A stretch of DNA of 62,855 bases from Klebsiella pneumoniae. GTDB lineage: Bacteria; Pseudomonadota; Gammaproteobacteria; Pseudomonadales; CAMAPQ01. The stretch is taken from assembly GCA_945860125.1 (NCBI GenBank), contig CAMAPQ010000002.1, positions 1 through 62,855 of the forward strand, in the 5' to 3' direction. The number at the start of each line of letters is the position of its first letter. The first letter of the stretch is position 1. A program made the translations under genes and the position numbers. Below are positions 918 to 37,097 of the stretch, in pieces. The notes below the pieces were generated by a model, which was given only the letters and a program-made list of their open reading frames with translations, had not been told where the DNA came from and did not search any database.

Positions 918-966
918 ATATTTCGTTCATAATATGAATATATTTTGTTATTTCATGGGTGGATTT

Positions 967-2238
967 ATGTTAATCGAGTTTCGGGTGAAAAATTTTCGTA
1001 GCCTCCGCGATGAACAAACCCTGAGCCTTGTGGCGTCAAGCGATAAGACGCTACTCGACACCCATACCATTAGTACTCAGCTCAAGGCCGCCCCACACTT
1101 GTTAAAAAGTGCAGCCGTTTATGGCGCAAATGCCAGCGGAAAATCAAATCTTATTAAGGCATTGCAGTACATGCGTGGCGTCGTGCTAGAGTCTGCCAGC
1201 TTACAACCAGGCCAAACTTTTGATCGGCTCCGGCCCTTTAAACTAGATGCAACTTCTGCTCAGCAACCAACAGAATTTGAAGTCACTTTTCTCTTAGAGG
1301 GTATTCGCTACCAGTATGGGTTTAGCATGACAGAGCAACGTATCATCAGTGAGCATTTGCTAGTATATAAGGCTTTTAAGCCTCAGCGCTGGTTTGATCG
1401 TTATTTTGATGCACAGAGTGCTAAAGACATCTATGAATTTGGCCCCAATTTGAAAGGTGCTAAAAATGTATGGGAAGGCGCCACGCGACCCAATGCTTTA
1501 TTTCTATCGATGGCCGTACAGCTAAATAGCGAAGCGCTGCTACCTGTTTTCAACTGGTTTGCTCACCAACTCATCATCTTTAACGAGCAATCTCCACTCT
1601 CACCCTATTTTTCTGTGGAAATGCTTAAACAAGAAACCACTCGCAAAAATATATGTCATTTCATGCAAGCTGCTGACATCAGCATTACAGATATTGAAGT
1701 GAAAGCACATAAAACAACAGGAAAAGCAGTGCACTTTGATTTAGCCGCCAGCAAAGCAGAAGTGCGACCAGAAGAGAGAGAAGAATATAAGCTTTACTTT
1801 CACCATGTGACAAAACAGGGTAAAGCTATTTTCGATATGGCAGATGAATCAAGCGGCACCCGTAACTTGCTCTTTTTTGCAGGACCCATCTTAGATATTC
1901 TGAGTAAAGGGCTGACCCTTGTAGTCGATGAATTAGATACCAGCCTACATCCTTTACTGGTACAAGCATTGGTTCGACTCTTTCACCAGCCAGAAATTAA
2001 TGGGAGTGGCGCACAGCTGATATTAACTACCCACGATACATCATTGCTAGATGCCTATGGCCTTTTTCGGCGTGATCAAATCTGGTTTGTCGAAAAAAAT
2101 TCAGATCAAAGCTCTGTACTGTATCCACTACTCGACTTCAGCCCACGAAAAAAAGAAGCACTAGAACGCAGTTACTTACAAGGCCGCTATGGTGCGTTGC
2201 CTTTTCTACTAGATCAGTCGTTAGGAGTTCGGCACTAG
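967..2238 (+). CDS. AAA-family (AAA_15/AAA_21, ABC-like) ATPase, RloA/AbiLi-like
   Basis: MLIEFRVKNFRSLRDEQTLSL is the SMC/OLD-like N-terminus. Walker A is GANASGKSNLIKAL and Walker B is LVVDELDTSLHP, followed by LILTTHDTSLL. The ORF track starts at 934; the Met at 967 fits the family N-terminus better. Confidence 0.75.
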   Translation: MLIEFRVKNFRSLRDEQTLSLVASSDKTLLDTHTISTQLKAAPHLLKSAAVYGANASGKSNLIKALQYMRGVVLESASLQPGQTFDRLRPFKLDATSAQQPTEFEVTFLLEGIRYQYGFSMTEQRIISEHLLVYKAFKPQRWFDRYFDAQSAKDIYEFGPNLKGAKNVWEGATRPNALFLSMAVQLNSEALLPVFNWFAHQLIIFNEQSPLSPYFSVEMLKQETTRKNICHFMQAADISITDIEVKAHKTTGKAVHFDLAASKAEVRPEEREEYKLYFHHVTKQGKAIFDMADESSGTRNLLFFAGPILDILSKGLTLVVDELDTSLHPLLVQALVRLFHQPEINGSGAQLILTTHDTSLLDAYGLFRRDQIWFVEKNSDQSSVLYPLLDFSPRKKEALERSYLQGRYGALPFLLDQSLGVRH

Positions 2239-2921
2239 TGGGGCGAGATCATCAGCCAAAAGCAAGACAACTTGCTCGGCAGGAGAAAAAAGAAAATCTC
2301 CACGAAAGTTACCCTCGTATTCTGATCGTTTCAGAAGGTAGCAAAACTGAACCTTTGTACTTTAGAAACCTTTGCGCGGAATTCCGATTGCCTGCAACAA
2401 AAATTATCGTAAAACCTTGCGAATCTGGCACGGCTCCCATTCAGGTCGTGAAATACGCCATAGAGCTTTTTAAAAAAGGCGATGCTAAAAAAGGCATTCG
2501 CCCCAAAAGCTTTGATCAAATATATGCGGTATTTGATCGAGATGACCATGAGAGTTATCATGACGCACTACAAATAGCAGCTTCAAACAATGGCAAGCTT
2601 AGTAACGATGAGAAGCAGCAAATCCCCTTTAAAGCGATTGCTTCAGTGCCTAGTTTTGAACTGTGGTTGTTACTGCACTACCAAGATGTTCAGGCTCCAG
2701 TACGTCGCGATGAAGTAATGCGCCGCCTTAAAAAGCATATCCCAGATTACACGAAGGGCTATAGCGGTGCCTTTGCAATGACTTGGCAGCACTCGAACAT
2801 TGCTAAAGAACGCGCTGAACGTTTAGCCGCTCGATTTACGGCAAAAGACGAACCAGAACCATTCACTGCTATTTTTGAACTGGTCAAAGTATTAACCACT
2901 ATTCGTAGATCCGATCCGTAA
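2238..2921 (+). CDS. RloB-like protein (Toprim-like, AbiLii-like partner of the upstream ATPase)
   Basis: Has RILIVSEGSKTEPLYF (conserved Glu) and VFDRDDHES (DxD-type acidic motif). The GTG start overlaps the upstream TAG stop (TAGTG), consistent with translational coupling. Confidence 0.75.
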   Translation: MGRDHQPKARQLARQEKKENLHESYPRILIVSEGSKTEPLYFRNLCAEFRLPATKIIVKPCESGTAPIQVVKYAIELFKKGDAKKGIRPKSFDQIYAVFDRDDHESYHDALQIAASNNGKLSNDEKQQIPFKAIASVPSFELWLLLHYQDVQAPVRRDEVMRRLKKHIPDYTKGYSGAFAMTWQHSNIAKERAERLAARFTAKDEPEPFTAIFELVKVLTTIRRSDP

Positions 2922-2940
2922 TACGCACAGGAAACCCAGA

Positions 2941-5900
2941 ATGGCAGACCAATCAGCAGAAACCATCTTTCAAAACGATATGATTGAGCAACTGCTAGCC
3001 AATGGTTGGTTGCTAGGAAAGTCAGCGCATTATGATCGAAAGCTCGCATTATATAGCGAAGATGTCATCGGTTTTATTCAAGAAACACAAGAGGCACAAT
3101 GGCAAAAATATTGTGCGCTTTACCCTCATGATACGACAGAAAAATTATTAGCCTTAGTTGCCAATCAATTAAACAAAGCGGATATCAATGCAACGCACAA
3201 GGATACACGTACTTTTGGCACGCTGGGCGTATTACGGCATGAATTGCGTGATCGAAACGTGCGTTTTCGCCTGTGTGAATTCAAACCAGAACACACTTTA
3301 AACCCAGACACTTTAACGCGTTACCACAAAAACAGGCTGCGCCTTGTGCCTGAGTTAGTCTATAGCCCATGGGCGACAGAGGCGCATTTGGCAGAAACCG
3401 GAAGCAAAGCCAAAAATTGGCGCATTGATTTAGTATTGTTTGTAAATGGCTTACCAATTGTCACCTTAGAATTAAAATCAGAATTTAAACAATCAGCCTA
3501 TAACGCAATTAAGCAATACAAAACCACACGCCTACCAATTGACCCTGCCACTAAAAAACCAGAACCACTTTTGAGCTTTAAACGCGGGGCCCTTGTGCAC
3601 TTTGCCGCAAGCCAATATGAAGTGTTTATGACAACAAAACTGGCCGGTGAAAACACTTACTTTTTACCCTTTAATAAAGGCACTAAAGAGGGAGCTGCCG
3701 GTAACGATGTACCGGATGAGATAACACGTTACGCCACTGACTATTTATGGAATGAAGTTTTACTGCCTGAAAATATATTAAATATATTAGGCCGTTTTGT
3801 GCATTTACACATTGAAGAAAAAGAAGATGATGCGGGGCGAAAAAGTAAAAAAGAAAGCATGATTTTCCCTCGATTTCATCAGTGGGATGTGGTCAACAAA
3901 TTAATGTTTGCGGCAAAAACTGAAGGCGCAGGTCACAAATATTTAATTCAACACAGTGCCGGTTCAGGCAAATCAAATTCGATTGCGTGGGTAGCGCATC
4001 AACTCTCTTCACTTTACGATGAAAAAGGCAATAAAAAATTCCACTCGGTGATTGTGGTGACAGATAGAATCGTGCTCGATGCACAATTACAAGATACTAT
4101 TTATCAATTTGAACATACTGATGGCGTGGTGGGCCGCATTAATCGCGATGAAGGCGAAGGCTCAAAATCAGAAAAACTAGCCACCGCACTGCAAAACGCC
4201 CAACCGATTATTATCGTCACCATTCAAACTTTTCCCTTTGTACTCAAAGCCATTGAAAATAGCGTAACGCTTAAAACACGCTGCTATGCCGTGATTGCCG
4301 ATGAAGCGCACTCATCGCAAACAGGCTCCACCGCACGCAAGCTAAAAGAAGTATTAATGATTGAGGCGAAAGAAGAAGACGAAGAGTTAAGTGCAGAAGA
4401 TATTATTGCAGCCACGGTTGCTTCGCGCCGTGCCTCAAATAATTTAAGCTATTTTGCTTTTACCGCGACCCCCAAAGCAAAAACACTAGAACTCTTTGGC
4501 CGCCTAGCCAATCCACAAGAGGCGCCTTCCGTTACAAATAAACCACAGGCTTATCACGTTTACAGTATGCGCCAAGCGATTGAAGAAGGCTTTATTTTGG
4601 ATGTGTTGAAAAATTATACCAACTACAAAGTGGCTTATAATTTGGCACAAAAAATTCAAGATCGTGAACAAGAGGTGGATAGCAAAAAAGCCCGCGTAAA
4701 ATTAAACCAGTGGGTTCGTTTGCATGATCACAATATTGCCCAAAAAGTGATGATCATTATTGAACACTTTAAAATGCATGTGATGCATTTACTCAATGGC
4801 CAAGCTAAGGCTATGGTCGTGACGGGATCACGCAAAGAAGCGGTGCGTTACAAGCTCGCCTTTGATCGCTATATTTTAGATAAAGGGTATCAAAAAATGT
4901 ATGCAATGGTTGCTTTCTCAGGCGAAGTAATCTTTTCAGAGAAAGACCCAAATAGCATGGACCTTCTCGGTGAGAAATTTACCGAAAACAATATGAATCT
5001 TCAGCTTAAAGGGCGCGATATGCGTAAGGCTTTTGATTCACAAGATTATCAAGTGATGATTGTGGCCAATAAATTTCAAACCGGTTTTGATCAGCCCAAA
5101 CTATGCGCAATGTACGTTGATAAAAAATTAGGCGGCGTTGATTGCGTACAAACGCTCTCGCGTTTAAATCGCACTTACCCAGGCAAAGAAACCACCGGCA
5201 CTTTTATTTTAGATTTTTTTAATAATCCAGAAGAGATTCTCTTAGCGTTTCAGCCCTACTATCAAACCGCAGAACTAGAGGATGTTTCTGATCCTAATTT
5301 AATTTTTCAACTGTATGATAAATTGCGTGCAGAAGGTATTTTTACCTGGCATGAAGTTGATCAATTTTGCACTTATTTTTACGAGGCGAATAAATCAAAT
5401 GCCGCGATTGCCAACCTCTGTAAACCTGCCCTACAGCGCTGGAAAATGCGTTATCAATCGGCAGTAGATACCTGTAAACAAGCTAAGGAAATGCTTGAGC
5501 AAATCAAAAAAACACACGATGCGGTTTTAATAGCCAATGCAGAAAATAGCCTAAAAGAGTGCCAAAAAGAAAAAAATGCACTTGAGATTTTCAAAAAAGA
5601 CTTGGGTAGTTTTGTGCGTTTTTATGAGTTTATGTCGCAAATTGTCGATTATGACGATACCAATTTAGAAAAGCTGTGTATCTATGCGCGCGCACTGCGC
5701 CCCATGCTGCGAGAAGCACTGATTGAAGAGGATGATATTGATTTGAGCAATGTTGTATTGAGTCACTATCGGGTATCAAAAATGCGAGCCCAACAGTTAA
5801 AGCTCACAGATAATAACGGCGAAAACCAACTCAAACCCAATGAAGATTTAGGCTCAGCAAAGCCAAAGGATAAAAATGAAATGTTTTTATCTGAGATCAT

Positions 5901-6195
5901 CGCCCGCCTTAATGAGCTCTTTATTACCGATCAGTTAACGACTGCCGATATGGTGAACTACGCCTACACCATTCGCGATAAAGTCAGTGAAAATAAATTA
6001 GTGATGACGCAAATTGCAAATAACTCACCAGAACAGGCGATGTTAGGTGATTTCTCAAAAGCCATTGATGATGCAATTTTAGATAGCAGCACAGCGCATC
6101 AAAATCAAATGATGCAACTATTGTCAGACCCCATAAAATCAGCGGCTTTTACCAAAGTTGTTTTTGATTTATTAGCATTTGCACAGCCAAAATAA
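2941..6195 (+). CDS. hsdR: Type I restriction endonuclease subunit R
   Basis: 1084 aa. Contains an HsdR N-terminal nuclease region, helicase motif I QHSAGSGKSNSIAW, motif II VIADEAHSSQTG (DEAH), and a long helical C-terminus. An AGGA Shine-Dalgarno lies at about 2930. Confidence 0.9.
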   Translation: MADQSAETIFQNDMIEQLLANGWLLGKSAHYDRKLALYSEDVIGFIQETQEAQWQKYCALYPHDTTEKLLALVANQLNKADINATHKDTRTFGTLGVLRHELRDRNVRFRLCEFKPEHTLNPDTLTRYHKNRLRLVPELVYSPWATEAHLAETGSKAKNWRIDLVLFVNGLPIVTLELKSEFKQSAYNAIKQYKTTRLPIDPATKKPEPLLSFKRGALVHFAASQYEVFMTTKLAGENTYFLPFNKGTKEGAAGNDVPDEITRYATDYLWNEVLLPENILNILGRFVHLHIEEKEDDAGRKSKKESMIFPRFHQWDVVNKLMFAAKTEGAGHKYLIQHSAGSGKSNSIAWVAHQLSSLYDEKGNKKFHSVIVVTDRIVLDAQLQDTIYQFEHTDGVVGRINRDEGEGSKSEKLATALQNAQPIIIVTIQTFPFVLKAIENSVTLKTRCYAVIADEAHSSQTGSTARKLKEVLMIEAKEEDEELSAEDIIAATVASRRASNNLSYFAFTATPKAKTLELFGRLANPQEAPSVTNKPQAYHVYSMRQAIEEGFILDVLKNYTNYKVAYNLAQKIQDREQEVDSKKARVKLNQWVRLHDHNIAQKVMIIIEHFKMHVMHLLNGQAKAMVVTGSRKEAVRYKLAFDRYILDKGYQKMYAMVAFSGEVIFSEKDPNSMDLLGEKFTENNMNLQLKGRDMRKAFDSQDYQVMIVANKFQTGFDQPKLCAMYVDKKLGGVDCVQTLSRLNRTYPGKETTGTFILDFFNNPEEILLAFQPYYQTAELEDVSDPNLIFQLYDKLRAEGIFTWHEVDQFCTYFYEANKSNAAIANLCKPALQRWKMRYQSAVDTCKQAKEMLEQIKKTHDAVLIANAENSLKECQKEKNALEIFKKDLGSFVRFYEFMSQIVDYDDTNLEKLCIYARALRPMLREALIEEDDIDLSNVVLSHYRVSKMRAQQLKLTDNNGENQLKPNEDLGSAKPKDKNEMFLSEIIARLNELFITDQLTTADMVNYAYTIRDKVSENKLVMTQIANNSPEQAMLGDFSKAIDDAILDSSTAHQNQMMQLLSDPIKSAAFTKVVFDLLAFAQPK

Positions 6196-6281
6196 ATAAA
6201 ATAACCTGAGCTAAGCTCAAGGGCTTCACCCTTCAACATAATCCAAAAATCCTTTTTTTTCTTCCCTTTGCGACATATCTC

Positions 6282-7508
6282 CTAGCTTTTTTTTCTGTTG
6301 CGATTACTTGTTAAATCATTGTAAGTTTGTATGCCATATCTATTTATAATATGGTTTTTGAAACGCACACAGTGAAATTGATTTTTAATATCATTTTCTG
6401 CTCTTTTTGATCCGAAAATTTCCTGTGATATTTGGGTCCAACGCTTACCATATTTTTCTATACCTGTTTTTATTTGATCATATTCATTATCGCTAAAGGG
6501 CGTTTTATTTAATATAGGATTTAAATGATTTACCCACCTCTCTCTAATTGCTTTAGGCGCATGCTGAGGAATCAATTCAGATAAATGAGACCACTGCCGA
6601 GATTCTTCTGCGCTGGCTTGATCTAATTTTGACTTTTCAGCAATTAATAATCTGTCGTCTTCTATAGTCCAAGATTTTGAGTGATGTGCTAGCTGCGAAG
6701 TTTGATGCTCGATAGGTGCTGCGGCTGGCTTCTGGTCGTTATCGTCCTCAGCAACATTATCCAACAATAGATTCAAAGATGGGTTATTACGAAGCGTTGG
6801 CATGTTATGGTCTTCGCTAAAACAATCTAAAAATATATTCAAATAGGGATAGTTAAGAAGCTCGCGCATGTGATCATCTTCGTTACTAGTCGCTAAAGAT
6901 ACAGGAATGGTTTCAATATCTTGGTGATTGTCGAGCAAAGCATATTGAGAAATGTGGGCGCTTTTATTTTCTGTGCTAGTAGTTTCATTTTTTGGCCGCT
7001 TGCTTCTTAAGTCTCGAATGGTTTGTGCTATTTTGAGTATTGCACGCTCATCATGTACTTCATAATAAAGGCTATCTTGTTTATTTTGCTGTAAAAATCG
7101 TCTACGTGGTATGGTGCTATGCACCTCTTGTAAAAGATCCAACCAAATTTGCTTTTTTTCAGATTTTTTCAATTGTGCATGAGTTTGAAAATCAATAGGT
7201 GCAACAGTTGGCGAGCCGTGCGTGATTAAATCTCTCAAATGAGTATTGCCGAAATGCGCACTAATGCTACCTCCACGACCAAGTAATATATCGCCACTTT
7301 GAACTGATTGAATACCTGTAGCATAGGGTTGTGATGTACAGAGTCGCGCTCCCCTAAGAGTGGCGGCATTTACAGTGCTGAGCTGAGTTTTTGTTTTTTT
7401 ATTGCTATCTAAAGGTTGAATTCCATTAAGAACAGACTGACTATCTAGAGCACGTTTTTTTTCATGTCCGCCATTCTCATGGGATGATTGAGAAACTTTG
7501 TTTAACAT
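6282..7508 (-). CDS. Eukaryotic-like protein with two C-terminal Myb/SANT repeats (R2R3-like); candidate secreted nucleomodulin
   Basis: WTIEDDRLL...RQWSHLSELIPQHAPKAIRERWVNHLNPILNKTPFSDNEYDQIKTGIEKYGKRWTQISQEIFGSKRAENDIKNQFH parallels c-Myb R2R3 (...CRERWHNHLNPEVKKTSWTEEEDRII...[24 protein letters not shown]). The N-terminal 270 aa are unassigned. Confidence 0.7.
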   Translation of the reverse strand: MLNKVSQSSHENGGHEKKRALDSQSVLNGIQPLDSNKKTKTQLSTVNAATLRGARLCTSQPYATGIQSVQSGDILLGRGGSISAHFGNTHLRDLITHGSPTVAPIDFQTHAQLKKSEKKQIWLDLLQEVHSTIPRRRFLQQNKQDSLYYEVHDERAILKIAQTIRDLRSKRPKNETTSTENKSAHISQYALLDNHQDIETIPVSLATSNEDDHMRELLNYPYLNIFLDCFSEDHNMPTLRNNPSLNLLLDNVAEDDNDQKPAAAPIEHQTSQLAHHSKSWTIEDDRLLIAEKSKLDQASAEESRQWSHLSELIPQHAPKAIRERWVNHLNPILNKTPFSDNEYDQIKTGIEKYGKRWTQISQEIFGSKRAENDIKNQFHCVRFKNHIINRYGIQTYNDLTSNRNRKKS

Positions 7509-7628
7509 AACTATAATAAACCTATATTGTTTTAATCTGAGATCAACGTATTTTTCTTTTAAAAACAGGTGCTTCCAAGTAAATTAGGCAGGTCTTGCCA
7601 AGAGAACTAGCAAGCAAGAAAGTGCCAC

Positions 7629-7790
7629 ATGAGACTAACAGAACTTTTCTGCAATATAGATGATTTTTGCAAAAAATTTGAGCCAACTTTAAAACAAAAC
7701 CTCGTAACTTTCAACCTTAAAAAATAGCCTAAAACTAAATTATCTATGAGTGAAATCATGATAATCGTCATCCATTTCAATAGAAAAAAC
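7629..7790 (+). pseudogene. IS982-family transposase N-terminal remnant
   Basis: MRLTELFCNIDDFCKKFEPTLKQNL...(TAG at 7725-7727)...KLSMSEIMIIVIHFN matches the conserved IS982 N-terminus (LTELFC.vDDFC ... LS.SEIMTI.I.FH). It has an in-frame stop and no downstream transposase body. Confidence 0.55.
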
Positions 7791-7959
7791 CTTCTCTTAA
7801 TATTCAGCGTTCAGAGCTTATTCCTATATATTTTTAAGCGTCGAGCTCAGCTTAATTAAAACTTCATGCGTAGCCCACTACAGCATAAGCAGCTGCCTAG
7901 TTGCGCAACTGCTCTGCCAAGTTGATACGGAGCCCTATTCTGACTTTGATGGGCTTGCC

Positions 7960-9309
7960 CTAATGCTTTTTACCCTTACCGCCAGTAACGGGGGAGGCCA
8001 TAAGCATGATGGTGCGATCCACGCCGCTGTCGGGGTGCTGTACGTTGATATAAGCGAGGTGGGGGTTAAATGGATCGAAATAAAGCCCTGTCGCCTCAGC
8101 ACCCACAGTATTCAGGCTTGCCCACTTGCCAATGGCTTCTGCCACGCCGTCATTGTCTTTATCAACGGCATACCATGTATCCTCGATACCACCTGGTTGG
8201 TCCTCAACAATATAGATATTATTTTCAGCATCAATTGCCAAGTTATCGGGGTTGGTAAATTCACTGCCTGCGGGGAAATCTGTCGCCATATCCTTAGTAT
8301 CACGGCTGGCAAATAATTTGACCTCCATTCGTTTGAGATCTATAGAAAAGACCTTGTGATTGGTCGTGGTAGCGACAAACAATATCTGGCTTTTATTGTT
8401 CAGCGTTTTTATTTCCATATCTTCAGGGCGATCAAATCCGGTCGCGAGAAATGCGGGAAGTTTTGGAGTGGCACGTCCGTCAATTTCAGTACCGTACACC
8501 AATACAGCGCCCGGTAAAGGCTTGCCGTCTTTATCTGTCAGCGCTATCCACTGTGCTTTTCCTGTCGCTTCTTTCACTGAGCCGTCACCCACCCGTAATA
8601 CTGAGGTTTCTCCTGCTGCAAAGTATTCATCCCCGTTTATGGCCTTAGGTGCTCTCGATTTAAACCTGAAGATATGGCTTGCGTTACGTTCATCGATAAA
8701 ATACAGGTTATTGTCCTTATCGAATGCAAGGCCTTCGTGTGATACGCGGGGGAGGATATTACGATGCTTAATCACAATAGCGGCGGGATCAGCCAAAGGA
8801 TTAATGACTTCGTAGAGACGGCCATAAAGGCTGACTGCCTGGCCTGGGTCACTCCAGGATTCTTCGCCTGTGAGATATGAACCCCAAGGTGTCCAGCGAG
8901 AGGCATCAAAAGCAACTTGGCTGCCAGGATTTTTGGCTTGCCAGATTGTCGTGGTTTGCATTGTGCGTAAATCTGTCCTCTGAATGCCAGCTTGACCCGT
9001 TTCAAATGGGGTGTACAAGTACCTGCCAGCATCAGGGCCATTTTCATTGACCGTTTGCATATCGTAACTGCCTGAGTCGAATCGCTCTATTTGTTGCGTG
9101 TCGCGGGTGACGATACTAACTTGTCGAAAGTCATCCGAGGATAGCCGAAACGGTGCAGACTCTGGCAGGGTGCCATTGTTTGTGTTGCCGACCAGTGGTG
9201 TAAAATCATCGAAATTTGTTGCAGCTGAAGCATTGTGCCCAGGGTCAGCTAGGGCGTGAGAAGCAACAATTGCAAGACCGACAGCAATGGATATTTTTTT
9301 TAGTGACAT
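7960..9309 (-). CDS. Secreted beta-propeller protein, PhoX/DUF839-like
   Basis: Sec signal peptide MSLKKISIAVGLAIVASHALA. Propeller-like repeats include NNLYFIDERN, FDRPEDMEI and TNPDNLAIDAENNIYIVEDQPGG, and the C-terminal YINVQHPDSG resembles the PhoX ...FVNIQHPG tail. At 449 aa it is shorter than typical PhoX. Confidence 0.5.
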   Translation of the reverse strand: MSLKKISIAVGLAIVASHALADPGHNASAATNFDDFTPLVGNTNNGTLPESAPFRLSSDDFRQVSIVTRDTQQIERFDSGSYDMQTVNENGPDAGRYLYTPFETGQAGIQRTDLRTMQTTTIWQAKNPGSQVAFDASRWTPWGSYLTGEESWSDPGQAVSLYGRLYEVINPLADPAAIVIKHRNILPRVSHEGLAFDKDNNLYFIDERNASHIFRFKSRAPKAINGDEYFAAGETSVLRVGDGSVKEATGKAQWIALTDKDGKPLPGAVLVYGTEIDGRATPKLPAFLATGFDRPEDMEIKTLNNKSQILFVATTTNHKVFSIDLKRMEVKLFASRDTKDMATDFPAGSEFTNPDNLAIDAENNIYIVEDQPGGIEDTWYAVDKDNDGVAEAIGKWASLNTVGAEATGLYFDPFNPHLAYINVQHPDSGVDRTIMLMASPVTGGKGKKH

Positions 9310-9599: not shown

Positions 9600-9834
9600 T
9601 ATACCCAAAGTAATAGGGCTTACGCAAAATTGCCCAGCTTTATTGTCCTGCCTCGCCGTACAGCGTGTACTGTCTTCGTCAGGACGCCTTGCTGGAACAA
9701 TTCTGCGTAAGTCCTAAGTAATTGGAATCACGGTGAGGCGGCAAGAGCGTGAACCCCATGAGCATAGATAAACTATGTGATTGGGGTGAATGAACGCAGC
9801 CAACAATGCCGTGGTTTCAAGTACGAAGGGTGTA
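9600..9834 (-). repeat. B-type palindromic element copy B1 (about 127 bp family), interrupted by A-type element
   Basis: tatacccaaagtaat[A1]aagtaattggaatcacggtgaggcggcaagagcgtgaaccccatgagcatagataaactatgtgattggggtgaatgaacgcagccaacaatgccgtggtttcaagtacgaagggtgta. With A1 and one aagtaat removed it is nearly identical to the reverse complement of B2 (11984-12110). Confidence 0.85.
9615..9715 (+). mobile_element. A-type MITE-like palindromic element copy A1 (about 101 bp), nested in B1
   Basis: Runs agggcttacgcaaaattgcccagc...gctggaacaattctgcgtaagtcct with terminal inverted repeats. It is flanked by the direct repeat aagtaat (9608-9614 and 9716-9722), which is single-copy in uninterrupted B elements. 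Confidence 0.8.
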
Positions 9835-12110: not shown

Positions 12111-12260
12111 GTTGTACGCTTGAGGTTACAAATCCTTTGTTGTTTTTCCTATAAAAAACTTGTTTATATTTTGCATAGCAATCTAGTTTATTCCTGCGCA
12201 TTCAGCATTGTTGTTTGCATTTATAATTAATTGGTATTAATCATTAGGCCGTTCTCTAGA

Positions 12261-14132
12261 ATGAAAGCAGTTCCACAATTCGCTTTGCAGGCTAAAAATT
12301 ATTTTTTTTTAAGGCCTTTTTTTTCGGCATTTTTATTATCTATTTTTCTTTTTTTACCCAGTTTTTCTTTTGGCTTATATGCGGATGATTACTATCTTTG
12401 GAATATTGTTCGTGGCGTGATATTTGAAGAAGAAAAATCTTCCTTTTGGCGTATGTTTTTTCATGGGTTTACTTTTTTTTCAGGTAATACGTTTGATACG
12501 CTGGGGTTAAAAGAGCAGGGTTTGGTTCCATGGTGGGCGAATGATGCTTTAAAAATAAATTTTTTTCGTCCTATTTCTTCTATAACGCATTGGTTCGATT
12601 TTTATTTCTTTTCATCTTATCCTTTGTTAATGCATGTACACTCATTTTTGTGGTTTACGGCACTTTTATGGGTAATTAATAAGTGGTATCAAGTTTTATT
12701 CCCCTTGGTTTCTGTTCAAAATAAAAAAATTGTTTTTATTGCGATTCTTATTTTCGTGCTTGATTTTAGTCATTCTTTTCCTTATTACTGGTTATCAAAT
12801 AGAAATATTATTATTGCCAGTTTTTTCTTATTTTCATCGCTGCTTTTTTTAGAGAAGGCAAAAAAACATTTCGGTTCTCATTATTTTTTTGCGATGCGCT
12901 ATTATTGTATTAGTCTATTGTTTTGGGATTTTGCTTTGTTAAGCGCAGAAAGCAGTTATTTCTCATTTTTTTATTTTATTCCTTACGTTTTTTTCTTTTT
13001 TAACTGTGCTTTCCAAAAAAAAGTAGCTTTATTAATACCTTATTTATTTATTCTGTTAGTGAATCTCTTTGTTTATCATTCGTTGGGTTATGGTGTTCTT
13101 TTTTCTGAGTTATATCTTGATCCTGTTAAACAAACTTTACTTTTTTCATCCTCTGTTTTTGAAAAGTTACCGTTGTATTTTTTTTCCAGCTTATCTGGGG
13201 TCGATGGTTTTTATGCGCAATTTTCAAATGGCATAAAGTTTTGTATTTGGCTTTTTTCTTTTTTAATAAGTGTCTTTTTCTTGGTGTTGGCAAGAAGGTC
13301 TATTGTGAATTGTAAGGTTACGACTTTTATCGCTATATTATGGGGTATCTCTTTATTTCCTTTAGCTGGTTTTACACTTTATAGTGCAAGAACACTTTTT
13401 TTAGCCAGTATTTTTGCCTCGCTTTTTTTAAGCGTGGTAATTGTTAAATCTTCACAAGGGTTATTTTTTTCAAGTTTAGTCATCAACCGTTTTGCTGTTA
13501 GGTTATTGTCTGGGTTACATATTTGGTTATCTTTATTCGCCTGGATAATTCTGGGGCTGTTATCTTTTTCCGGTAATTTAGAGATGAAACCTGCTTCATT
13601 AAATTATGGTTTTTTAACAAGCGCTCATAAAAAAGAAGTGGTGATTTTAAATCATCCTGATGTAATGGCGCATTTGTATTCATCTTTTATTTTTTCTAAT
13701 GCTTCAGAGGTTATGCCTTTAGTCATCGGCACTGCTTTCCAGAAAATGATTGTTAAGAATAAAAGTATGGGAAGTGGTGCGTGTCACTTACTGATTGAGT
13801 TTGAGCCTTATTTAATTACCGGCCAATCTTCCGGTTGGTGGAAAACAGATATTGTCTCAACTCAGTCATATTTTAATCCGCTATATTTTGGATTGAGTGC
13901 TGCCTCTATTTTTACGCCTGCTAACTGGTATATTGGCGATCAGTTTAGGGTGAGGGATGTGATGATTACCGTTGAAACACTTTCTGCTAAAGGGAATGTT
14001 AAAAGTATTGATATTAACTTTGTGAATGTGGAAAGTTGTAATGATATTCTTTTTTTGCAGTGGCGCAATCAGCAGCAGCAGTATGAAGAAATAAATCTAT
14101 CTAAATTGGGGGCTGATTTTGGTGTGATATGA
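12261..14132 (+). CDS. Polytopic inner-membrane protein with C-terminal soluble domain (possible GT-C-type glycosyltransferase); paralog 1
   Basis: More than 10 hydrophobic segments, very Phe/Leu-rich. The first loop has an ADDYYLWNI acidic motif. The conserved block VPWWANDALKINFFRPISSITHWFDFYFFSSYPLLMHVHSFLWF is shared with the next gene. Start taken at the ATG at 12261. Confidence 0.55.
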   Translation: MKAVPQFALQAKNYFFLRPFFSAFLLSIFLFLPSFSFGLYADDYYLWNIVRGVIFEEEKSSFWRMFFHGFTFFSGNTFDTLGLKEQGLVPWWANDALKINFFRPISSITHWFDFYFFSSYPLLMHVHSFLWFTALLWVINKWYQVLFPLVSVQNKKIVFIAILIFVLDFSHSFPYYWLSNRNIIIASFFLFSSLLFLEKAKKHFGSHYFFAMRYYCISLLFWDFALLSAESSYFSFFYFIPYVFFFFNCAFQKKVALLIPYLFILLVNLFVYHSLGYGVLFSELYLDPVKQTLLFSSSVFEKLPLYFFSSLSGVDGFYAQFSNGIKFCIWLFSFLISVFFLVLARRSIVNCKVTTFIAILWGISLFPLAGFTLYSARTLFLASIFASLFLSVVIVKSSQGLFFSSLVINRFAVRLLSGLHIWLSLFAWIILGLLSFSGNLEMKPASLNYGFLTSAHKKEVVILNHPDVMAHLYSSFIFSNASEVMPLVIGTAFQKMIVKNKSMGSGACHLLIEFEPYLITGQSSGWWKTDIVSTQSYFNPLYFGLSAASIFTPANWYIGDQFRVRDVMITVETLSAKGNVKSIDINFVNVESCNDILFLQWRNQQQQYEEINLSKLGADFGVI

Positions 14133-16081
14133 AAATAATAGCCTGCTTTTATCGTTTCTGGATTTTCTTTTTTAATAAGCTGCAACATGTAGCTTCGCCT
14201 GGTACTTGGTTAAGTATCTTGGCGGTATGTGTTGTGTTGCCGAGTATAACGCTTGGTTTTGTGGCCGATGATTTTGTGCATAGAAATATCATTTTTTGTG
14301 ATTTAAAACCTTTTGAGTCAGGTATTTGTAAGAATCAATTAGCTGATTTATGGTATGCAATTAACCATGCTTTTAATTTTCATGATGCTGAAAATCAGAC
14401 AATTAGAGCAGGCGTGCAAACCGGCTTTATGCCTTGGTGGAGTAACCCTGAGCTTCACTGGTCTATGGCAAGACCGCTCGCTGCTTTTTTTCATTGGTTA
14501 GATTTTGCGCTTTGGCCTAATTCCCCTAGTTTAATGCATGTTCACAATGCGTTATGGTTTGGTCTTTTGCTTTTTGTCATGTTTAAAACCGCCTTTCGTA
14601 TTGCCAAAGATTCTGGTTATCAGCATACGGATAAAATGCTGCTTATTGGTTCATTGATTTTTATTTTTGATTTTAGTCATTTTGAAGGTTTGTATTGGTT
14701 GGCTGCGCGTAACATGGAAATTTCTATGGTATTTCTATGGAGTGCTTTATATTTTTATCATCGATGGAGTATTGAGAAAAAAAGCTTGCTTTTTTTAATC
14801 AGTCTTTTTTCTTTTTTTGGCTCATTGTTATCTGCTGAGATGGGCGTGATGACCGTAATGGTGCTTGCTGTTTATATTTTTGTTTTTGCAGCAAGGCCTT
14901 ATAAAAGACATGCTCTTGCGCTGCTTATTTATTTTGTGGTGTTTTTATTTTGGAAGAATCTTTATGTTTATTTAGGTTTTGGTAATTCAGGTGGCCAGCT
15001 TTATATTGATCCAACAATGGCGCCTTTTGATTTTTTTCGTCAAATGTGGCAGTTATTACCGATTTATATTTTTGCCCATTTTTCGGCTGTCGATGGTTTT
15101 AGCTTATTGCTGAATAAAGTGGGTATGTTTTTTTACTGGTTATTTTGTTTAGTTATGGTGTTTTATCTCTTGGCAAGGGCCCGTAAATTTATTCAAAGTA
15201 ATCTTTGGGTTTTATTTTGTTTTTTGGGTTTCCTTGCTTGTCTTATTCCTATTTGTGCGTTGCCAACGGAGCGTGGCCGGTTACTTTTTTCGGCTAGTAC
15301 GTTTGGTTGTTTCTTTTTGGCGGCAGTGATCATCGAGCTAATGAAAAAATTTGAGCAATCTGGGCGGGTTTTTTATCAGCTTATGACGGTTGTTATGTTT
15401 AATATACATATTGGTTTATCTGTGCTTATTGCCTTGTTTCTTTTTGTTTTTACACTTTTTGGCAGTTTTGCGCATGAGACTACCTCTCATTTTCGATTTG
15501 AAAAGCATCTTGATGTTGAAAATCGTTCTTTAGTCATTATTAATGAGCCTTTTTATTTTGAAAAAATATATTGGAAAATGCATGCTAATTGGTATCATGG
15601 TGCGTCACCACGTAACATGCTTGCTTTATTTGATGGCTTAAGTCCTGTTCGTATTCATCGTAAAACAGAAAACTTGTTTTTGGTGGAAAGCATTTATGGC
15701 TTGCAAGCAGGCCACTCAACTTATCTTTTAAATGCCTTTCCCCTTGGCATGGCACATTATTTTGAAAAAATGGATCGGCATTTTATAGGTTCGGATCAAA
15801 TCTTTTTTGTGGGCATGTCTTTCAATGTGAGAGATATTGCAATTACCGTTGAGGCGGTTAATGATTTTAATCGCCCAACCCGTGTGAGCTTTGAATTTAC
15901 GCAAGGCCTACCTTCTGATCAGTTGTGGATTTATTGGGATTGGCTTAGCGGTGAATACAAAACATTTCAATTGCCTGCTATAGGCGAAGCCGCCGTAATC
16001 GGTGGTCCTTTTATGGATGGAGTCATGCCAACTAAAGTGGAGAATCATAAAGCAGATGAATCAAACAGTAATGTCAAATAA
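14129..16081 (+). CDS. Polytopic inner-membrane protein with C-terminal soluble domain (possible GT-C-type glycosyltransferase); paralog 2
   Basis: Paralogous to 12261-14132, with FVADDFVHRNI, MPWWSNPELHWSMARPLAAFFHWLDFALWPNSPSLMHVHNALWF, and C-terminal VRDIAITVEAV versus VRDVMITVETL. There is an ATGA start/stop overlap with the upstream gene. Confidence 0.55.
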   Translation: MKIIACFYRFWIFFFNKLQHVASPGTWLSILAVCVVLPSITLGFVADDFVHRNIIFCDLKPFESGICKNQLADLWYAINHAFNFHDAENQTIRAGVQTGFMPWWSNPELHWSMARPLAAFFHWLDFALWPNSPSLMHVHNALWFGLLLFVMFKTAFRIAKDSGYQHTDKMLLIGSLIFIFDFSHFEGLYWLAARNMEISMVFLWSALYFYHRWSIEKKSLLFLISLFSFFGSLLSAEMGVMTVMVLAVYIFVFAARPYKRHALALLIYFVVFLFWKNLYVYLGFGNSGGQLYIDPTMAPFDFFRQMWQLLPIYIFAHFSAVDGFSLLLNKVGMFFYWLFCLVMVFYLLARARKFIQSNLWVLFCFLGFLACLIPICALPTERGRLLFSASTFGCFFLAAVIIELMKKFEQSGRVFYQLMTVVMFNIHIGLSVLIALFLFVFTLFGSFAHETTSHFRFEKHLDVENRSLVIINEPFYFEKIYWKMHANWYHGASPRNMLALFDGLSPVRIHRKTENLFLVESIYGLQAGHSTYLLNAFPLGMAHYFEKMDRHFIGSDQIFFVGMSFNVRDIAITVEAVNDFNRPTRVSFEFTQGLPSDQLWIYWDWLSGEYKTFQLPAIGEAAVIGGPFMDGVMPTKVENHKADESNSNVK

Positions 16082-33359: not shown

Positions 33360-36300
33360 ATGCAATTTTTAGAAAATGGCCCAGATATCCCAAATGAATT
33401 ATTAAATGCTCATGAAGAAGGAAAAGTTATATTTTTTTGTGGTGCAGGCATTTCCATACCTGCTGGCTTACCAGAATTCAAGGATCTAGTAAAAAAAATT
33501 TATGAGGCTTTGGGCGTAGATCCATCTGTTATTGAGCAAAATTTTCAAAATGATAAGAAGTACGATGTAACATTGAATTTGTTAGAGCAGCGAGTGCCCG
33601 GGGGGCTAGTTACTGTGCGGAAGGAGTTGTTAAATGTCCTTAAGCCTAACTTGCGTCGAAAAGGGGCTATTGATACTCACGCATCTTTGTTAAAACTCGC
33701 GCATAGTCGACAAGGACTCTTGAAACTTGTTACTACCAATTTTGACCGTATTTTTGAGCACGTGATTAAACAAAGGAAACTGCCGTACCGTTCATATTCT
33801 GCGCCAATGCTTCCTATCCCCAATAATAGCTGGGATGGTTTGGTATATCTGCACGGGTTACTACCTGATAAGCATGATGACAGAGTATTAAACCAGCTTG
33901 TGGTCACTAGCGGGGATTTTGGCCGTGCTTATTTGACTGAGCGCTGGGCTGCACGATTCATCAGCGAATTATTTCGCAATTATATAGTGTGTTTCGTCGG
34001 CTACAGTATCAATGACCCGATCATGCACTATATGATGGATGCGCTGGCTGCCTCCAGAAAAACAGGCGATATACAAACAGAAGCTTATATATTGACTGAT
34101 TGCACCATTAATAATGAACATAATAAGAAAATTGAATGGGAAGCTAAGGGTGTTACACCTATTTTTTATAAAACACCATCTGAACATGATCATTCAGCCT
34201 TGCACAAAACATTAAAAACTTGGGCTGCAACTTACAGTGATGGTGTAACTGGCAAAGAGTACATAGTTACTGAATATGCGGTGACCAAACCTTCAGCAAG
34301 TACAAAACAAGATGACTTTGTTGGGAGAATGATTTGGGCGCTATCGGATGCAACGGGACTGCCTGCGAAATTTTTTGCGAATTATAATCCGGTGCCGTCT
34401 CTTGAATGGCTAGAAGATCTCTCCAAAAAGTTTTTTCAAAATATGTCAGTCGTTTCTCATGTCTCAGAAGAAAAAAAATGGGATGCAGTGATGCCACACT
34501 TAGCGCACTGGCTGACTCGGCATCTGAATGATCCTGACTTAATCGTATGGCTAAATAATCGGGGAGGCCGGTTGCATGCGGAATTTGCACGACAAATTAA
34601 TGTACAGATAAATCGCTTAACAGAGTTAATGCTCAATGAACAAACAGATGAGTTAAAAGAAATTCAAAAGAATGCCCCAAATGCTATCCCGAATAGCCCT
34701 ATGCTAAAAACATGGCACCTCTTGTTAGCGGGACAGATCACATCAGCATCAAATAAAGTTGACCTATATTTTTTAGAACACTGGATTAAAAGAGGCGTCA
34801 GTATTAGTTTCCGTTTGCAATTGAGAAGCTTGCTTGCGCCAAAGGTCAAACTAAAAAGCGGAGTAATTTTTTCAGAGGAAAATAATTCAGAGCCAACAGA
34901 AATACCAGAACATATACATCAAATTTTCAACGTTGAATTAATTCTTGCACATAATCATGCACGCTCGGTACTTAATAATTTAAATAAATATGATCATAAA
35001 TCATGGTGTCATGTTTTACCTGAACTCTTTGAAGAGTTTCAACAATTACTGCGAGATGCCCTCGATTTATTTTGTGAATTGGGTAGGGCTAATGATAAAA
35101 ACGATCCTTCTTATCGGGCACAACCATCGATTAGCAAGCATTACCAAAATCAAAATTTTGACGAGTGGACGGCATTAATTGAATGGGTGCGTGATGCTTG
35201 GTTAGCGATTTTACCGATAAACCCAGAGCGTGTGGTTCAAATTGCACAGGCATGGTATGAACTACCATATCCTACATTCAAACGCCTTGCTTTATTTGCT
35301 GCGAGTCAAGACAACCGCATATCTCCAGATCAATGGGTTGATTGGCTTCTAGTAGATCATGCATGGTGTCTTTGGTCTTACCAAACAAAACGAGAAACAA
35401 TGCGATTACTCGTGTTACGAGGTTGCCATCTGATGCCTCAAATACTGCAAAAACTAGAAGATATAATTTTATTAGGCCCACCACATGATATGTTTTTGGA
35501 AGGCTCTTCTCAAGATAAAGTGACAGCTATGATGGATTATGAAGTATGGCTGCGACTTGCTAAGCTAAATCAGGGGCAATGTATTCTAAGCGAATCTGCT
35601 TTACAAAAAATGGATAGCTTATCGGCAAAAAATCCAGGTTGGAAATTAAGTAGGCACGAGAAAGAAGAATTTTCTGGCTGGCACACTGGTTCAGGAGCCC
35701 CAGATTTTGATGATTATCGCCAAATTGATCACGTTCCAAGAAAAAGAAAGGAGATTGTTTCATGGTTAAAAGAACAATCAATAATTAAGAGACGAGATCC
35801 ATTTTATGAAAATACTTGGATTAAAACCTGTCGTACGAGATTTTTTCACTGTGCTTATGCCTTATGTGATCTCGCTAAAGAAGAAATTTTCTTACCTAAA
35901 TATTGGGAAGAAGCTGTGGGCACTTGGCGAGAAGATGGGAAAAAATTACGCTCTTGGCGATTTTGTGCCCCGTTGATACAACAATTACCTAATTTGAGAT
36001 TGAAAGAAATTGAATATGATATTGCTCTATGGTTATCAGATGTTTCTAATTCTATTTTAATTAATAAGCATGAAAGTATTTTTTTTGATTTATGTCAGCG
36101 CATACTCAATTTTCAAAGTGAAAAAAATGATAAAGCTTATTCATCACTGACTATAGCTATCAATCATTCAGTGGGTCACATTACTGAAGCTCTTTTAAAT
36201 ATTTGGTTAAAAAGAGAACCCAATGATAACGATCAATTACCCGATGAGATAAAGCGTTTTTTCAATATGCTGTGTGATACTCATGAAGTAGAGTCATTTC

Positions 36301-37097
36301 GGTATGGTAGAGAAATACTTGCATCACGCGTCATTGCGCTATTTCGAGTTGATAAGGATTGGACGCGCCAACACTTGCTACCGCTATTCAATTGGGAAAA
36401 TAGTGCTGAAGCAAAATCTGCATGGGAAGGGTTTTTATGGTCACCTCGCTTTCATTTTCCGCTACTCATTGAACTCAAAACTCACTTTCTTCATACAGCA
36501 GAAAAATATACAAAATTAGATAATAGGCATGGAGATTTTGGCCGTCAATATGCGGTATTTTTAACAAATTTTGCAATTCATTGGCCTAATATTTACTCTG
36601 ATCATGATTTTAAAACTGCGATAAGTCATTTACCTCTCAAAGGATCAGAAGAATCATTAGAAACTCTTGCACAATCATTAGAGAGTGCGCCAGTGGGAAC
36701 AAAAGAAGCCTTTTGGGAGAATCGTATCAAACCTTTCTATATAAAATTTTGGCCCAATAAATCAACAGAGTTTTTATCAGGAAAAAACTCACAATCTTTT
36801 GCTCGATTAATGATTGCATCAGGAAAAAAATTTCCAGATACTTTTTCTATGTTGAATAATTGGTTAATTCCAGTAGAAAATCCAAACTACGTTATTGATG
36901 AACTTGATCGTTCTGGATTGGCAAATCATTTTCCTCAGCAATCACTGGCATTGCTATGCAAAATCATTGACATTAAGTTCCGTTGGCCTTCGAAAGAGCT
37001 GCGCACCTGTTTAGATAGTATTCAGGAAAAAGGTTTTGGTACAGATGTTCAATATCAACATCTAAATACTTATTGGCGTAGCCTTGATAATCATTAG
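33360..37097 (+). CDS. Large SIR2-domain protein (N-terminal SIR2_2-type NADase-like domain plus about 950-aa unassigned helical region); candidate single-gene defence protein
   Basis: VIFFCGAGISIPAGLPEF is the Rossmann GAGxS motif. LVTTNFDRIFE, GLVYLHGLL (catalytic-His position), SGDFGRAY and VCFVGYSINDP follow. The C-terminal approximately 950 aa are Trp/Leu-rich with no motif I recognise. Confidence 0.75.
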   Translation: MQFLENGPDIPNELLNAHEEGKVIFFCGAGISIPAGLPEFKDLVKKIYEALGVDPSVIEQNFQNDKKYDVTLNLLEQRVPGGLVTVRKELLNVLKPNLRRKGAIDTHASLLKLAHSRQGLLKLVTTNFDRIFEHVIKQRKLPYRSYSAPMLPIPNNSWDGLVYLHGLLPDKHDDRVLNQLVVTSGDFGRAYLTERWAARFISELFRNYIVCFVGYSINDPIMHYMMDALAASRKTGDIQTEAYILTDCTINNEHNKKIEWEAKGVTPIFYKTPSEHDHSALHKTLKTWAATYSDGVTGKEYIVTEYAVTKPSASTKQDDFVGRMIWALSDATGLPAKFFANYNPVPSLEWLEDLSKKFFQNMSVVSHVSEEKKWDAVMPHLAHWLTRHLNDPDLIVWLNNRGGRLHAEFARQINVQINRLTELMLNEQTDELKEIQKNAPNAIPNSPMLKTWHLLLAGQITSASNKVDLYFLEHWIKRGVSISFRLQLRSLLAPKVKLKSGVIFSEENNSEPTEIPEHIHQIFNVELILAHNHARSVLNNLNKYDHKSWCHVLPELFEEFQQLLRDALDLFCELGRANDKNDPSYRAQPSISKHYQNQNFDEWTALIEWVRDAWLAILPINPERVVQIAQAWYELPYPTFKRLALFAASQDNRISPDQWVDWLLVDHAWCLWSYQTKRETMRLLVLRGCHLMPQILQKLEDIILLGPPHDMFLEGSSQDKVTAMMDYEVWLRLAKLNQGQCILSESALQKMDSLSAKNPGWKLSRHEKEEFSGWHTGSGAPDFDDYRQIDHVPRKRKEIVSWLKEQSIIKRRDPFYENTWIKTCRTRFFHCAYALCDLAKEEIFLPKYWEEAVGTWREDGKKLRSWRFCAPLIQQLPNLRLKEIEYDIALWLSDVSNSILINKHESIFFDLCQRILNFQSEKNDKAYSSLTIAINHSVGHITEALLNIWLKREPNDNDQLPDEIKRFFNMLCDTHEVESFRYGREILASRVIALFRVDKDWTRQHLLPLFNWENSAEAKSAWEGFLWSPRFHFPLLIELKTHFLHTAEKYTKLDNRHGDFGRQYAVFLTNFAIHWPNIYSDHDFKTAISHLPLKGSEESLETLAQSLESAPVGTKEAFWENRIKPFYIKFWPNKSTEFLSGKNSQSFARLMIASGKKFPDTFSMLNNWLIPVENPNYVIDELDRSGLANHFPQQSLALLCKIIDIKFRWPSKELRTCLDSIQEKGFGTDVQYQHLNTYWRSLDNH

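Follow-up and report, generated by a model that had tools for sequence, protein, structure and literature searches.

The gene considered here encodes, in an uncultured aquatic bacterium, a protein that is built like a eukaryotic transcription factor. It lies in the 62,855-nucleotide stretch of contig CAMAPQ010000002.1 (GenBank assembly GCA_945860125.1, positions 1 to 62,855) that was analysed and that is referred to below as the window, where a complete open reading frame (ORF) with an ATG start (6282..7508, minus strand) encodes 408 aa. By profile criteria the product is a member of both the Myb R2R3 and the DUF6824 families. From the N-terminus it comprises a disordered tail, DUF6824, an acidic disordered linker and the R2R3 domain with a C-terminal extension, an architecture predicted to be competent for DNA binding. 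The gene is encoded by the bacterium rather than by a eukaryotic contaminant, and it is under purifying selection. Its sequence relationships give good support to a transfer from eukaryote to bacterium, most likely out of an eukaryote of algal type, the donor likely being a diatom-like stramenopile.

A Myb R2R3 domain joined to DUF6824

A first-pass annotation, made from the sequence without database searches, had proposed a eukaryotic Myb R2R3-like domain at residues ~280-385. The sequence strings that it quoted are present in the ORF, and the domain is recovered at ~278-380. Both Pfam families that had been suggested for a search match above their gathering thresholds: Myb_DNA-bind_6 (PF13921) at residues 280-345 (E 3.1e-15, 56.5 bits versus a cut-off of 22.9) and Myb_DNA-binding (PF00249) at residues 335-379 (E 1.1e-11, 45 bits versus a cut-off of 24.4). 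A phmmer search of all PDB chains matched the R2R3 region of c-Myb (1h88) at E 1.2e-11, with the best single c-Myb stretches scoring ~32-34 bits, and further matched v-Myb, Trichomonas Myb1/2/3, B-Myb, and plant WER. The AlphaFold2 (AF2) model of the 408-aa protein, computed from an alignment of 45 rows, has a predicted local distance difference test score (pLDDT) >90 across residues 278-400, including the R2R3 helices (282-297, 302-312, and 318-329; 340-353, 357-363, and 371-378). Foldseek places the Myb region of this model on the Myb-DNA complexes 3zqc, 3osg, 1h89, 1h8a, and 6kks with target-normalised template modelling (TM) scores of 0.69-0.79 and root-mean-square deviations of 2.4-3.1 A. 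Combining Pfam, phmmer, AF2, Foldseek, and the alignment, the domain (6309..6677, minus strand) divides into an R2-like repeat (~278-331), an R3-like repeat (~332-380), and a C-terminal extension (381-400) of two helices, 381-391 and 393-400, both modelled at high confidence.

The alignment also bears out two finer details of the first reading, namely an insertion within repeat 1 and the replacement of some Trp positions by Phe, the latter seen in R3 as PFS at the start of the repeat and NQF in its recognition helix. The base contacts of c-Myb, which we take from published c-Myb-DNA structures to be K128/E132/N136 and N179/K182/N183, are kept as K-E-N in KAIRERWVNHL and N-K-N in ENDIKNQ, and N186 is replaced by His.

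The N-terminal 270 residues had been described as having no recognisable domain, a description that does not stand: residues 73-166 match Pfam DUF6824 (PF20710) at E 6.1e-15 (55.9 bits versus a cut-off of 27) and fold confidently. On Pfam and AF2 evidence the globular domain extends over residues 60-172 (6993..7331, minus strand), carries the motifs D.L.GRG..H.GN..R and PRRRFL, and forms an alpha/beta module with pLDDT >94 in the full-length model; modelled alone, it reaches a pLDDT of 90.7 and a predicted TM score of 0.82. The GRG..H.GN and P.(G/R)RFL motifs are kept in an alignment of 29 sequences. Foldseek found no structural match for the fold in PDB or BFVD (best E 0.85 and 0.39, respectively), and DUF6824 is not mentioned in the literature searched.

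Two segments flank this domain, and both are predicted to be disordered (pLDDT <50). The tail (residues 1-55 in the AF2 model) contains KKR-x17-KKTK within a bipartite basic motif, KKRALDSQSVLNGIQPLDSNKKTK (residues 17-40; 7389..7460, minus strand), which reads as resembling a nuclear localisation signal (NLS) and may serve nuclear import. All 7 family members that retain the N-terminus have (K/R)(K/R)(K/R) followed first by a conserved spacer with VQP(L/V) at its end and then by KK.K. The linker (residues 173-275; 6684..6992, minus strand) has a net charge of -13 and carries NYPYLNIFLDCFSEDHN and NPSLNLLLDNVAEDDNDQKPAA, which share the hydrophobic-acidic pattern NP.L..FLD.F.E(D/N); this pattern is duplicated in three metagenomic homologs (L007, L088, and L095). 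A DDxxKPAA motif directly upstream of the Myb domain is common to a eukaryotic protein, P0098. In these respects the linker appears similar to an acidic activation region.

Eukaryotic relatives and probable origin

When 1.84 billion representative proteins were searched exhaustively with HMMER, 7994 matched at E <=1e-3, of which just 11 reach E <=1e-30. These 11 comprise a small bacterial family and proteins named as diatoms: Thalassiosira sp. (KAL7529778.1), T. punctigera (MMETSP), Cyclostephanos tholiformis (KAL3822106.1), and Thalassiosira sp. NH16 (MMETSP). The diatom proteins are the best matches outside the family among all of the representatives searched, with single-domain scores of 80-93 bits to diatom-type proteins over a span that covers R2R3 and ~25 more residues. 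The matching proteins are plainly eukaryotic in their long P/G/Q-rich low-complexity stretches and a RING finger. Identity between the bacterial protein and any eukaryotic protein is ~30-40%.

Three features set the bacterial protein and its closest eukaryotic relatives apart from canonical Mybs: Phe replaces the first Trp of R3, two residues are inserted ahead of the recognition helix of R3, and the C-terminus is extended with the pattern F(K/R)xxI...(F/Y)G...Y. The corresponding subfamily signature, RDRWVNHLNP.INH.PFS...GKRWVEIS..FNS.RSENHIKNRWYSA.FKKFI.NEFG.DAY, is found in 87/151 best matches, and the labelled members of the subfamily are Thalassiosirales diatoms. Since the Trp-to-Phe replacement and the insertion are common to this diatom-labelled subfamily, they are traits of the subfamily and not signs of decay, and by these shared indels the Myb part is assigned to it. 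A neighbor-joining (NJ) tree recovers the five close bacterial sequences as monophyletic in 100/100 bootstrap replicates.

The DUF6824 half points in the same direction. Its named matches are all from diatoms (Thalassiosira, Asterionellopsis, and Stephanodiscus), often with 2-5 tandem copies, and an unlabelled DUF6824 protein on an 81-kb contig is taken to be eukaryotic because it adjoins a topoisomerase with HMG boxes. Fusions of DUF6824 and Myb also exist in eukaryotes: the metagenomic proteins P0098, whose contig bears a split BING4CT gene, and P0091; ACHAW5_008278 of Stephanodiscus triporus (P0295); and a fragment, P0028, in which DUF6824 is joined directly to a diatom-type Myb. The simplest history would be that a whole DUF6824-Myb gene passed from a diatom-like stramenopile into bacteria. 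The eukaryotic character first ascribed to the Myb domain is upheld in that both domains and their fusion have diatom-labelled relatives; the amoebal source that had been envisaged for comparison gives way to a donor that is likely a diatom-like stramenopile.

A bacterial gene in a variable segment

An identical protein is encoded on 8 contigs from at least six independent ENA/Logan assemblies, and on each longer contig the gene lies between hsdR and PhoX, near GGDEF-EAL, aroA, cmk, and rpsA. Its GC content (0.373), GC content at third codon positions (GC3, 0.284), and codon-usage log-likelihood (-1.03) are within the range of the core genes of the window. These shared neighbours and host-like composition, with a terminator-like hairpin, make a chimera or contamination very unlikely and indicate that the gene is not recent; codon amelioration likewise implies long residence. 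The composition outliers of the window are instead the restriction-modification (R-M) and AbiL genes (GC3 0.37-0.40) and PhoX (GC3 0.458), core genes having a GC3 of ~0.30. The description of the region as horizontally acquired territory is therefore apt for the R-M/AbiL genes and for PhoX, and does not extend to the Myb gene, with its host-like GC3 and codon usage.

The first-pass annotation had further placed the gene between an R-M island and an IS982 remnant. On the one side, hsdR is indeed the convergent neighbour, at the end of a defence island (934-6195, plus strand) that consists of AbiLi (934-2238) and AbiLii (2238-2921), an AAA_21/RloB pair, followed by type I hsdR (2941-6195). On the other side, the flank is a PhoX-like phosphatase gene and IS982 was not found: blastn matched the 450-bp spacer at 7509-7959 to no PLSDB plasmid, neither of the two short ORFs inside it matches Pfam, and the remnant was rejected on these grounds. 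The sole nearby repeat-like element is of the V_AS5 type and is not an insertion sequence. The PhoX-like gene (7960-9309, minus strand; GC 0.483, GC3 0.458) is the strongest composition outlier in the window and was probably acquired later than the adjoining Myb gene.

A related locus, L091 (AroA 72% identical), keeps the backbone of GGDEF-EAL, two membrane-protein genes, aroA, and cmk, with other genes in the window position of PhoX, Myb, and R-M. The occurrence of different genes at this syntenic site marks the PhoX-Myb-R-M segment as variable.

Candidate signals for expression accompany the gene. A G+C hairpin followed by a T-run, similar to a terminator (6205..6221, minus strand), follows the stop codon at a distance of ~60 nt, in the gap on which the Myb gene and hsdR converge; with one such site seen in the 1.9-kb region versus 1.2 expected by chance, it is weak evidence when taken alone. 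Upstream, the element TAAAACAATATAGG (7521..7534, minus strand; consensus AAAA(C/T)AATA.AG) lies 13-26 nt before the ATG and is kept in 6/6 family copies, at 10-25 nt before their start codons, and in an alignment of the six upstream regions the DNA outside it has diverged. It is a probable translation-initiation or promoter-proximal element. The gene start has no canonical Shine-Dalgarno sequence, and a promoter scan around the gene gave nothing above chance.

A small family in related bacteria

Relatives of the protein in bacteria are few. A word-indexed search of 5.8 billion proteins found just three besides the query, and the peptide patterns with which 185,579 GTDB species genomes were scanned picked up no relative. 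In the JGI metagenomes a first set of patterns found no family member, and a hand-built DNA pattern found L095. The relatives are on short metagenome contigs of ~37% GC, and their genomic contexts differ. Orthologs of 59-62% identity keep every module. L007 carries a 444-aa copy together with a second copy that is split into a DUF6824-only and a Myb-only ORF (family region 2692-3921). L088 carries three copies (952-4833), of which one consists of DUF6824 and linker only and one runs off the contig, with a DDE transposase fragment beside them; its paralog L088a has lost several of the DNA-contact residues. L089 holds a partial copy, and L095 a 447-aa copy that is 59% identical. The ratio of nonsynonymous to synonymous substitution rates (dN/dS) is 0.31 versus L007 and 0.43 versus L088, and it is <1 in every region, at dS of 0.4-2.

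In L007, L088, and L095 the family copies adjoin not R-M genes but a gene for a 240-aa LRV-repeat protein. The window does not contain this LRV/HEAT-repeat gene (L007 114-836, L088 2290-3018, and L095 872-1591, all minus strand). By eye the N-terminus of its product, LPSSLMFNIFEYAG, resembles an F-box, a reading that Pfam does not support, with no F-box match at E up to 1.

A second bacterial occurrence is P0033, a very divergent 524-aa DUF6824-Myb protein (L093, 182-1756, plus strand) on a 35-kb contig where its neighbours are bacterial (response-regulator, NERD, HTH_3, and DUF3670/SNF2 genes). As it does not group with the first bacterial family, it may represent a separate acquisition.

The host bacterium

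The best named relatives of the AroA encoded in the window, among the 120 matches listed, are ~60% identical and belong to Oceanospirillales, Methylothermaceae, Thioploca, Endozoicomonas, and Pseudomonas; none of the named AroA relatives in those matches is from Legionella. For SucA, identity among the matches listed is at most 69%, with Alcanivorax/Pseudomonas at that value. From these comparisons the host appears to be an uncultured gammaproteobacterium that AroA and SucA leave unplaced below the class. The earlier analogy with pathogens of the Legionella/Coxiella type finds no support here, given AroA relatives from diverse orders, without Legionella among the matches listed, and no protein of the window that reaches the NCBIfam cut-off of any Dot/Icm effector family.

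Apart from the Myb protein, the sole protein seen in the window with a eukaryote-associated domain is a 518-aa protein with many ankyrin repeats (61136-62692, minus strand). Other genes were considered as signs of lifestyle or as effectors and were set aside. A nearby "eukaryotic-like Ser/Thr kinase" is a bacterial kinase of the PknB type. A 1245-aa SIR2-domain protein (33360-37097, plus strand) scores 1604 bits, versus a cut-off of 1400, for the anti-phage sirtuin Dsr1; the match is at equivalog level, and the protein is a defence protein. Two large orphan proteins encoded at 12231-16081 are paralogous polytopic membrane proteins, described further below.

Proposed function and alternative explanations

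The bacterium would, we propose, use a route independent of Sec to deliver the Myb protein into the cells of a eukaryotic host, for which a diatom-like alga is the most plausible candidate. Once there, the conserved N-terminal bipartite basic motif would direct nuclear import, the R2R3 domain with its c-Myb base-contacting residues would bind Myb-type sites (AAC-core), and the DUF6824 module, together with the acidic motifs of the linker, would recruit or compete for host factors, with the net effect that the protein would mimic or antagonise host Myb regulators. Taken jointly, these steps, from entry into the eukaryotic cell and its nucleus to the binding of Myb sites and a disturbance of Myb regulation in the host, make up a proposal that we consider about evenly balanced between right and wrong. 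That the protein functions as an effector is plausible in view of the NLS-like motif, the acidic linker, the kept DNA-contact residues, and the expansion of paralogs, relatives having 2-3 copies in tandem as well as one that is split and one that is partly degenerate; the ankyrin-repeat protein also encoded in the window is counted on the same side. A bolder proposal, which we regard as tentative and on the doubtful side, is that diatoms (or related stramenopiles) have in this gammaproteobacterial lineage a hitherto unrecognised parasite or symbiont, intracellular or dependent on contact, which has captured a complete host Myb, fitted it with a nuclear-import motif of its own, and injects it to rewire host transcription, and that a second, marine lineage independently does likewise.

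The maximum Kyte-Doolittle value of the protein over 19 residues is 0.38, and the lack of a hydrophobic segment speaks against both export by Sec and a place in the membrane. Its N-terminal 25 residues are rich in S/T/N/Q (9-11/25), which fits a signal for a type III secretion system (T3SS) and is not diagnostic of one. The last 30 residues include 1 acidic and 7 basic residues. A C-terminal signal of the Dot/Icm type (E-block) is unlikely because the C-terminus is folded and basic and ends 5-12 residues past a conserved motif.

A number of observations weigh against the effector proposal and its diatom setting. No T3SS, type IV or type VI secretion system gene, chaperone, or recognised secretion signal was found in the 62.9-kb window, and the C-terminus of the protein is folded, with helices up to residue 400 of 408 and homologs that end 5-12 residues after the conserved YG.Q.Y. 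The genes of the window offer no positive sign of an intracellular or host-associated life: a full tricarboxylic acid cycle gene set, nirB, and aroA are present, the Ser/Thr kinase is of the ordinary PknB type, and the matches of the ankyrin protein to Legionella Ank/Dot-Icm families reflect generic repeat similarity, far below cut-offs. Structure searches of PDB and BFVD give DUF6824 no functional assignment, and the tail and linker are read as NLS and activation domain by motif resemblance alone. As to the source of the gene, the diatom subfamily and the bacterial sequences are monophyletic in just 13/100 NJ replicates, with long-branch SNAPc4-like Mybs intruding, and the label "diatom" may reflect the sampling of databases since most eukaryotic matches carry no taxon label.

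The main rival explanation is that the protein has been domesticated, remaining in the cytoplasm, where it would bind DNA of the bacterium itself in the manner of a transcription factor or nucleoid-associated protein. We consider this unlikely, with enough in its favour to be taken seriously: the protein lacks a secretion signal, its gene has no secretion system close by and is fully ameliorated and under purifying selection, a Myb domain of the helix-turn-helix type could in principle bind bacterial DNA, and there is no clear sign of dependence on a host. Less easily reconciled with such a role are a basic motif in a disordered tail and an acidic linker of ~100 residues with duplicated motifs, features typical of eukaryotic regulators. 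Tandem duplication, splitting, and decay of contact residues in paralogs would also be unusual for a housekeeping regulator, and the family is accessory, being missing at the syntenic site of L091 and from the GTDB genomes with the patterns used. The same paralogs, in particular the split and truncated copies and the loss of several DNA-contact residues in L088a, would suit a gene derived from ingested or lysed algal DNA that plays no adaptive role and is drifting toward loss, as would the narrow distribution of the family. We hold this to be improbable: at least six assemblies carry the full-length ORF in identical form, dN/dS is well below 1 in all regions at dS of 0.4-2, codon amelioration implies long residence, orthologs of 59-62% identity retain all modules, and a second lineage independently retains the same architecture.

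Two further explanations concern the surroundings of the gene. It ends 87 bp from the end of hsdR, in convergent orientation, beside AbiLi/AbiLii, and could be conceived as part of this anti-phage island (type I R-M with AbiLi/AbiLii), for example as a DNA-binding regulator or sensor. This is highly improbable given that the protein has no PADLOC, PHROG, or NCBIfam match, that the gene is convergent with its own terminator-like hairpin and differs in composition from the R-M genes, and that neither R-M nor Abi genes adjoin the homologs in L007, L088, L095, and L093. Finally, the eukaryotic affinity of the closest relatives would be explained if a diatom fragment had been mis-joined into a bacterial contig, in an assembly chimera or through contamination. 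The chance of this is slight in the extreme: the same junctions on both sides recur in independent ENA and Logan assemblies (at least six), the gene is intron-less with a GC3 equal to that of flanking core genes, orthologs occur in other bacterial contexts, and no eukaryotic protein is closer than ~30-40% identity.

Other features of the window

The overlapping ORFs 12231-14132 and 14129-16081 (plus strand) encode tandem paralogs of 630-650 aa that are 26% identical over ~600 aa (E 3e-50). The pair resembles polytopic membrane proteins, is kept in L091, and lies in a region of low GC and strongly negative AT skew; neither member has a Pfam, NCBIfam, or PDB match. Just upstream of the GGDEF-EAL gene is an element of ~120 nt (9712-9830, plus strand) that matches Rfam RF02818 (V_AS5) with 53 bits, below the gathering threshold of 96 (E 6.7e-11), and that shares 71-84% identity with short intergenic stretches present in multiple copies in replicons of Vibrio, Salmonella, E. 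coli, Klebsiella, and Yersinia. It looks like an intergenic repeat of the enterobacterial repetitive intergenic consensus (ERIC) type, which would be unexpected in so distant a lineage. At gathering thresholds, Rfam found nothing in the window, and a scan for tRNAs detected none.

Significance and comparison with known systems

Eukaryote-like bacterial proteins of probable host origin are already known, and those listed for endosymbionts of protists include Myb-like ones. What is new, and not described in the literature searched, is a whole diatom-type, two-domain transcription factor with its own NLS-like motif in gammaproteobacteria. The bacterium thus holds an entire eukaryotic transcription-factor architecture: R2R3, the lineage-specific DUF6824, an acidic linker, and the NLS-like motif. 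In the literature searched, no Myb-domain effector has been characterised so far. Diatoms are major primary producers, and molecular knowledge of their bacterial pathogens and symbionts is poor. Their Mybs reportedly control transitions of the life cycle (bioRxiv 10.64898/2026.03.25.714157). If the protein is delivered to a host, it would represent a new effector mechanism and likely a bacterium-diatom association hitherto unknown; its binding motif and target genes would provide a tractable entry into host reprogramming, and DUF6824, with a confidently predicted fold and no solved relative, would gain its first functional context. Were injection into diatoms to prove true, it would be the first case of a sequence-specific eukaryotic transcription factor serving as a bacterial effector and would provide a handle on bacteria-diatom warfare.

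The closest counterparts of the protein are eukaryotic. Diatom Mybs with the signature FxSxRSEN-IKNRW-x4-FKKFI-x3-FG-x2-AY share with it the PFS motif, the 2-residue insertion, and the two-helix extension. They are, unlike it, long and rich in low-complexity sequence, often contain multiple copies of the Myb unit, and keep the Trp in KNRW, whereas the bacterial protein is compact and has KNQF and an N-terminal basic motif of its own. The eukaryotic DUF6824-Myb fusions are ~25% identical to it overall. In P0098 and P0091 the domains follow one another as in the bacterial protein, with a similar DD..KPAA motif just before Myb; these two differ in having a canonical Myb without insertion or extension and, in place of the N-terminal bipartite motif, an SV40-like KKRKV/RKRKV near the C-terminus. 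In P0295, the domains are in the reverse order. The R2R3 of c-Myb (PDB 1H88, 1H89, 1MSE) is similar in fold (TM 0.73-0.79) and in the residues that contact the AAC core; against this stand an identity of 28-30%, the lack of R1, a 6-residue insertion in R2, two Trp-to-Phe replacements, the C-terminal extension, and the bacterial context.

Among bacteria, the nearest precedent is provided by clostridial endosymbionts of termite-gut parabasalids, for which Takahashi et al. (2023; PMC10579323) list in passing Myb-like transcription factors among host-derived eukaryote-like genes. These are likewise bacterial genes of eukaryotic type that are read as acquired from protist hosts; they belong to another phylum and another donor group, and the comparison is by description only. 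That account stresses Sec signal peptides for about half of the endosymbionts' eukaryote-like proteins, and the protein described here, without a Sec signal, is unlike that half. The model followed by the first-pass annotation was that of Legionella RomA and LphD (PMC10104843), in which domains derived from eukaryotes act on host chromatin. Both are enzymes secreted by Dot/Icm, unlike the present protein, which shows no enzymatic domain, Dot/Icm evidence, or sign of affiliation with Legionellales.

A review of nucleomodulins (PMC7819608) lists no Myb-domain nucleomodulin and mentions Myb only as a target, in the form of MYB30. It does describe DNA-binding nucleomodulins that act as transcription factors, namely the transcription activator-like (TAL) effectors of Xanthomonas/Ralstonia and HsvG/HsvB of Pantoea. 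Their modules are unrelated to Myb and they are proven T3SS substrates, whereas the protein of the window is a captured eukaryotic module whose translocation is a proposal. The principle proposed here, that of entry into the nucleus, binding of specific promoters, and an activation region, is one that it would share with them (PMC7819608).

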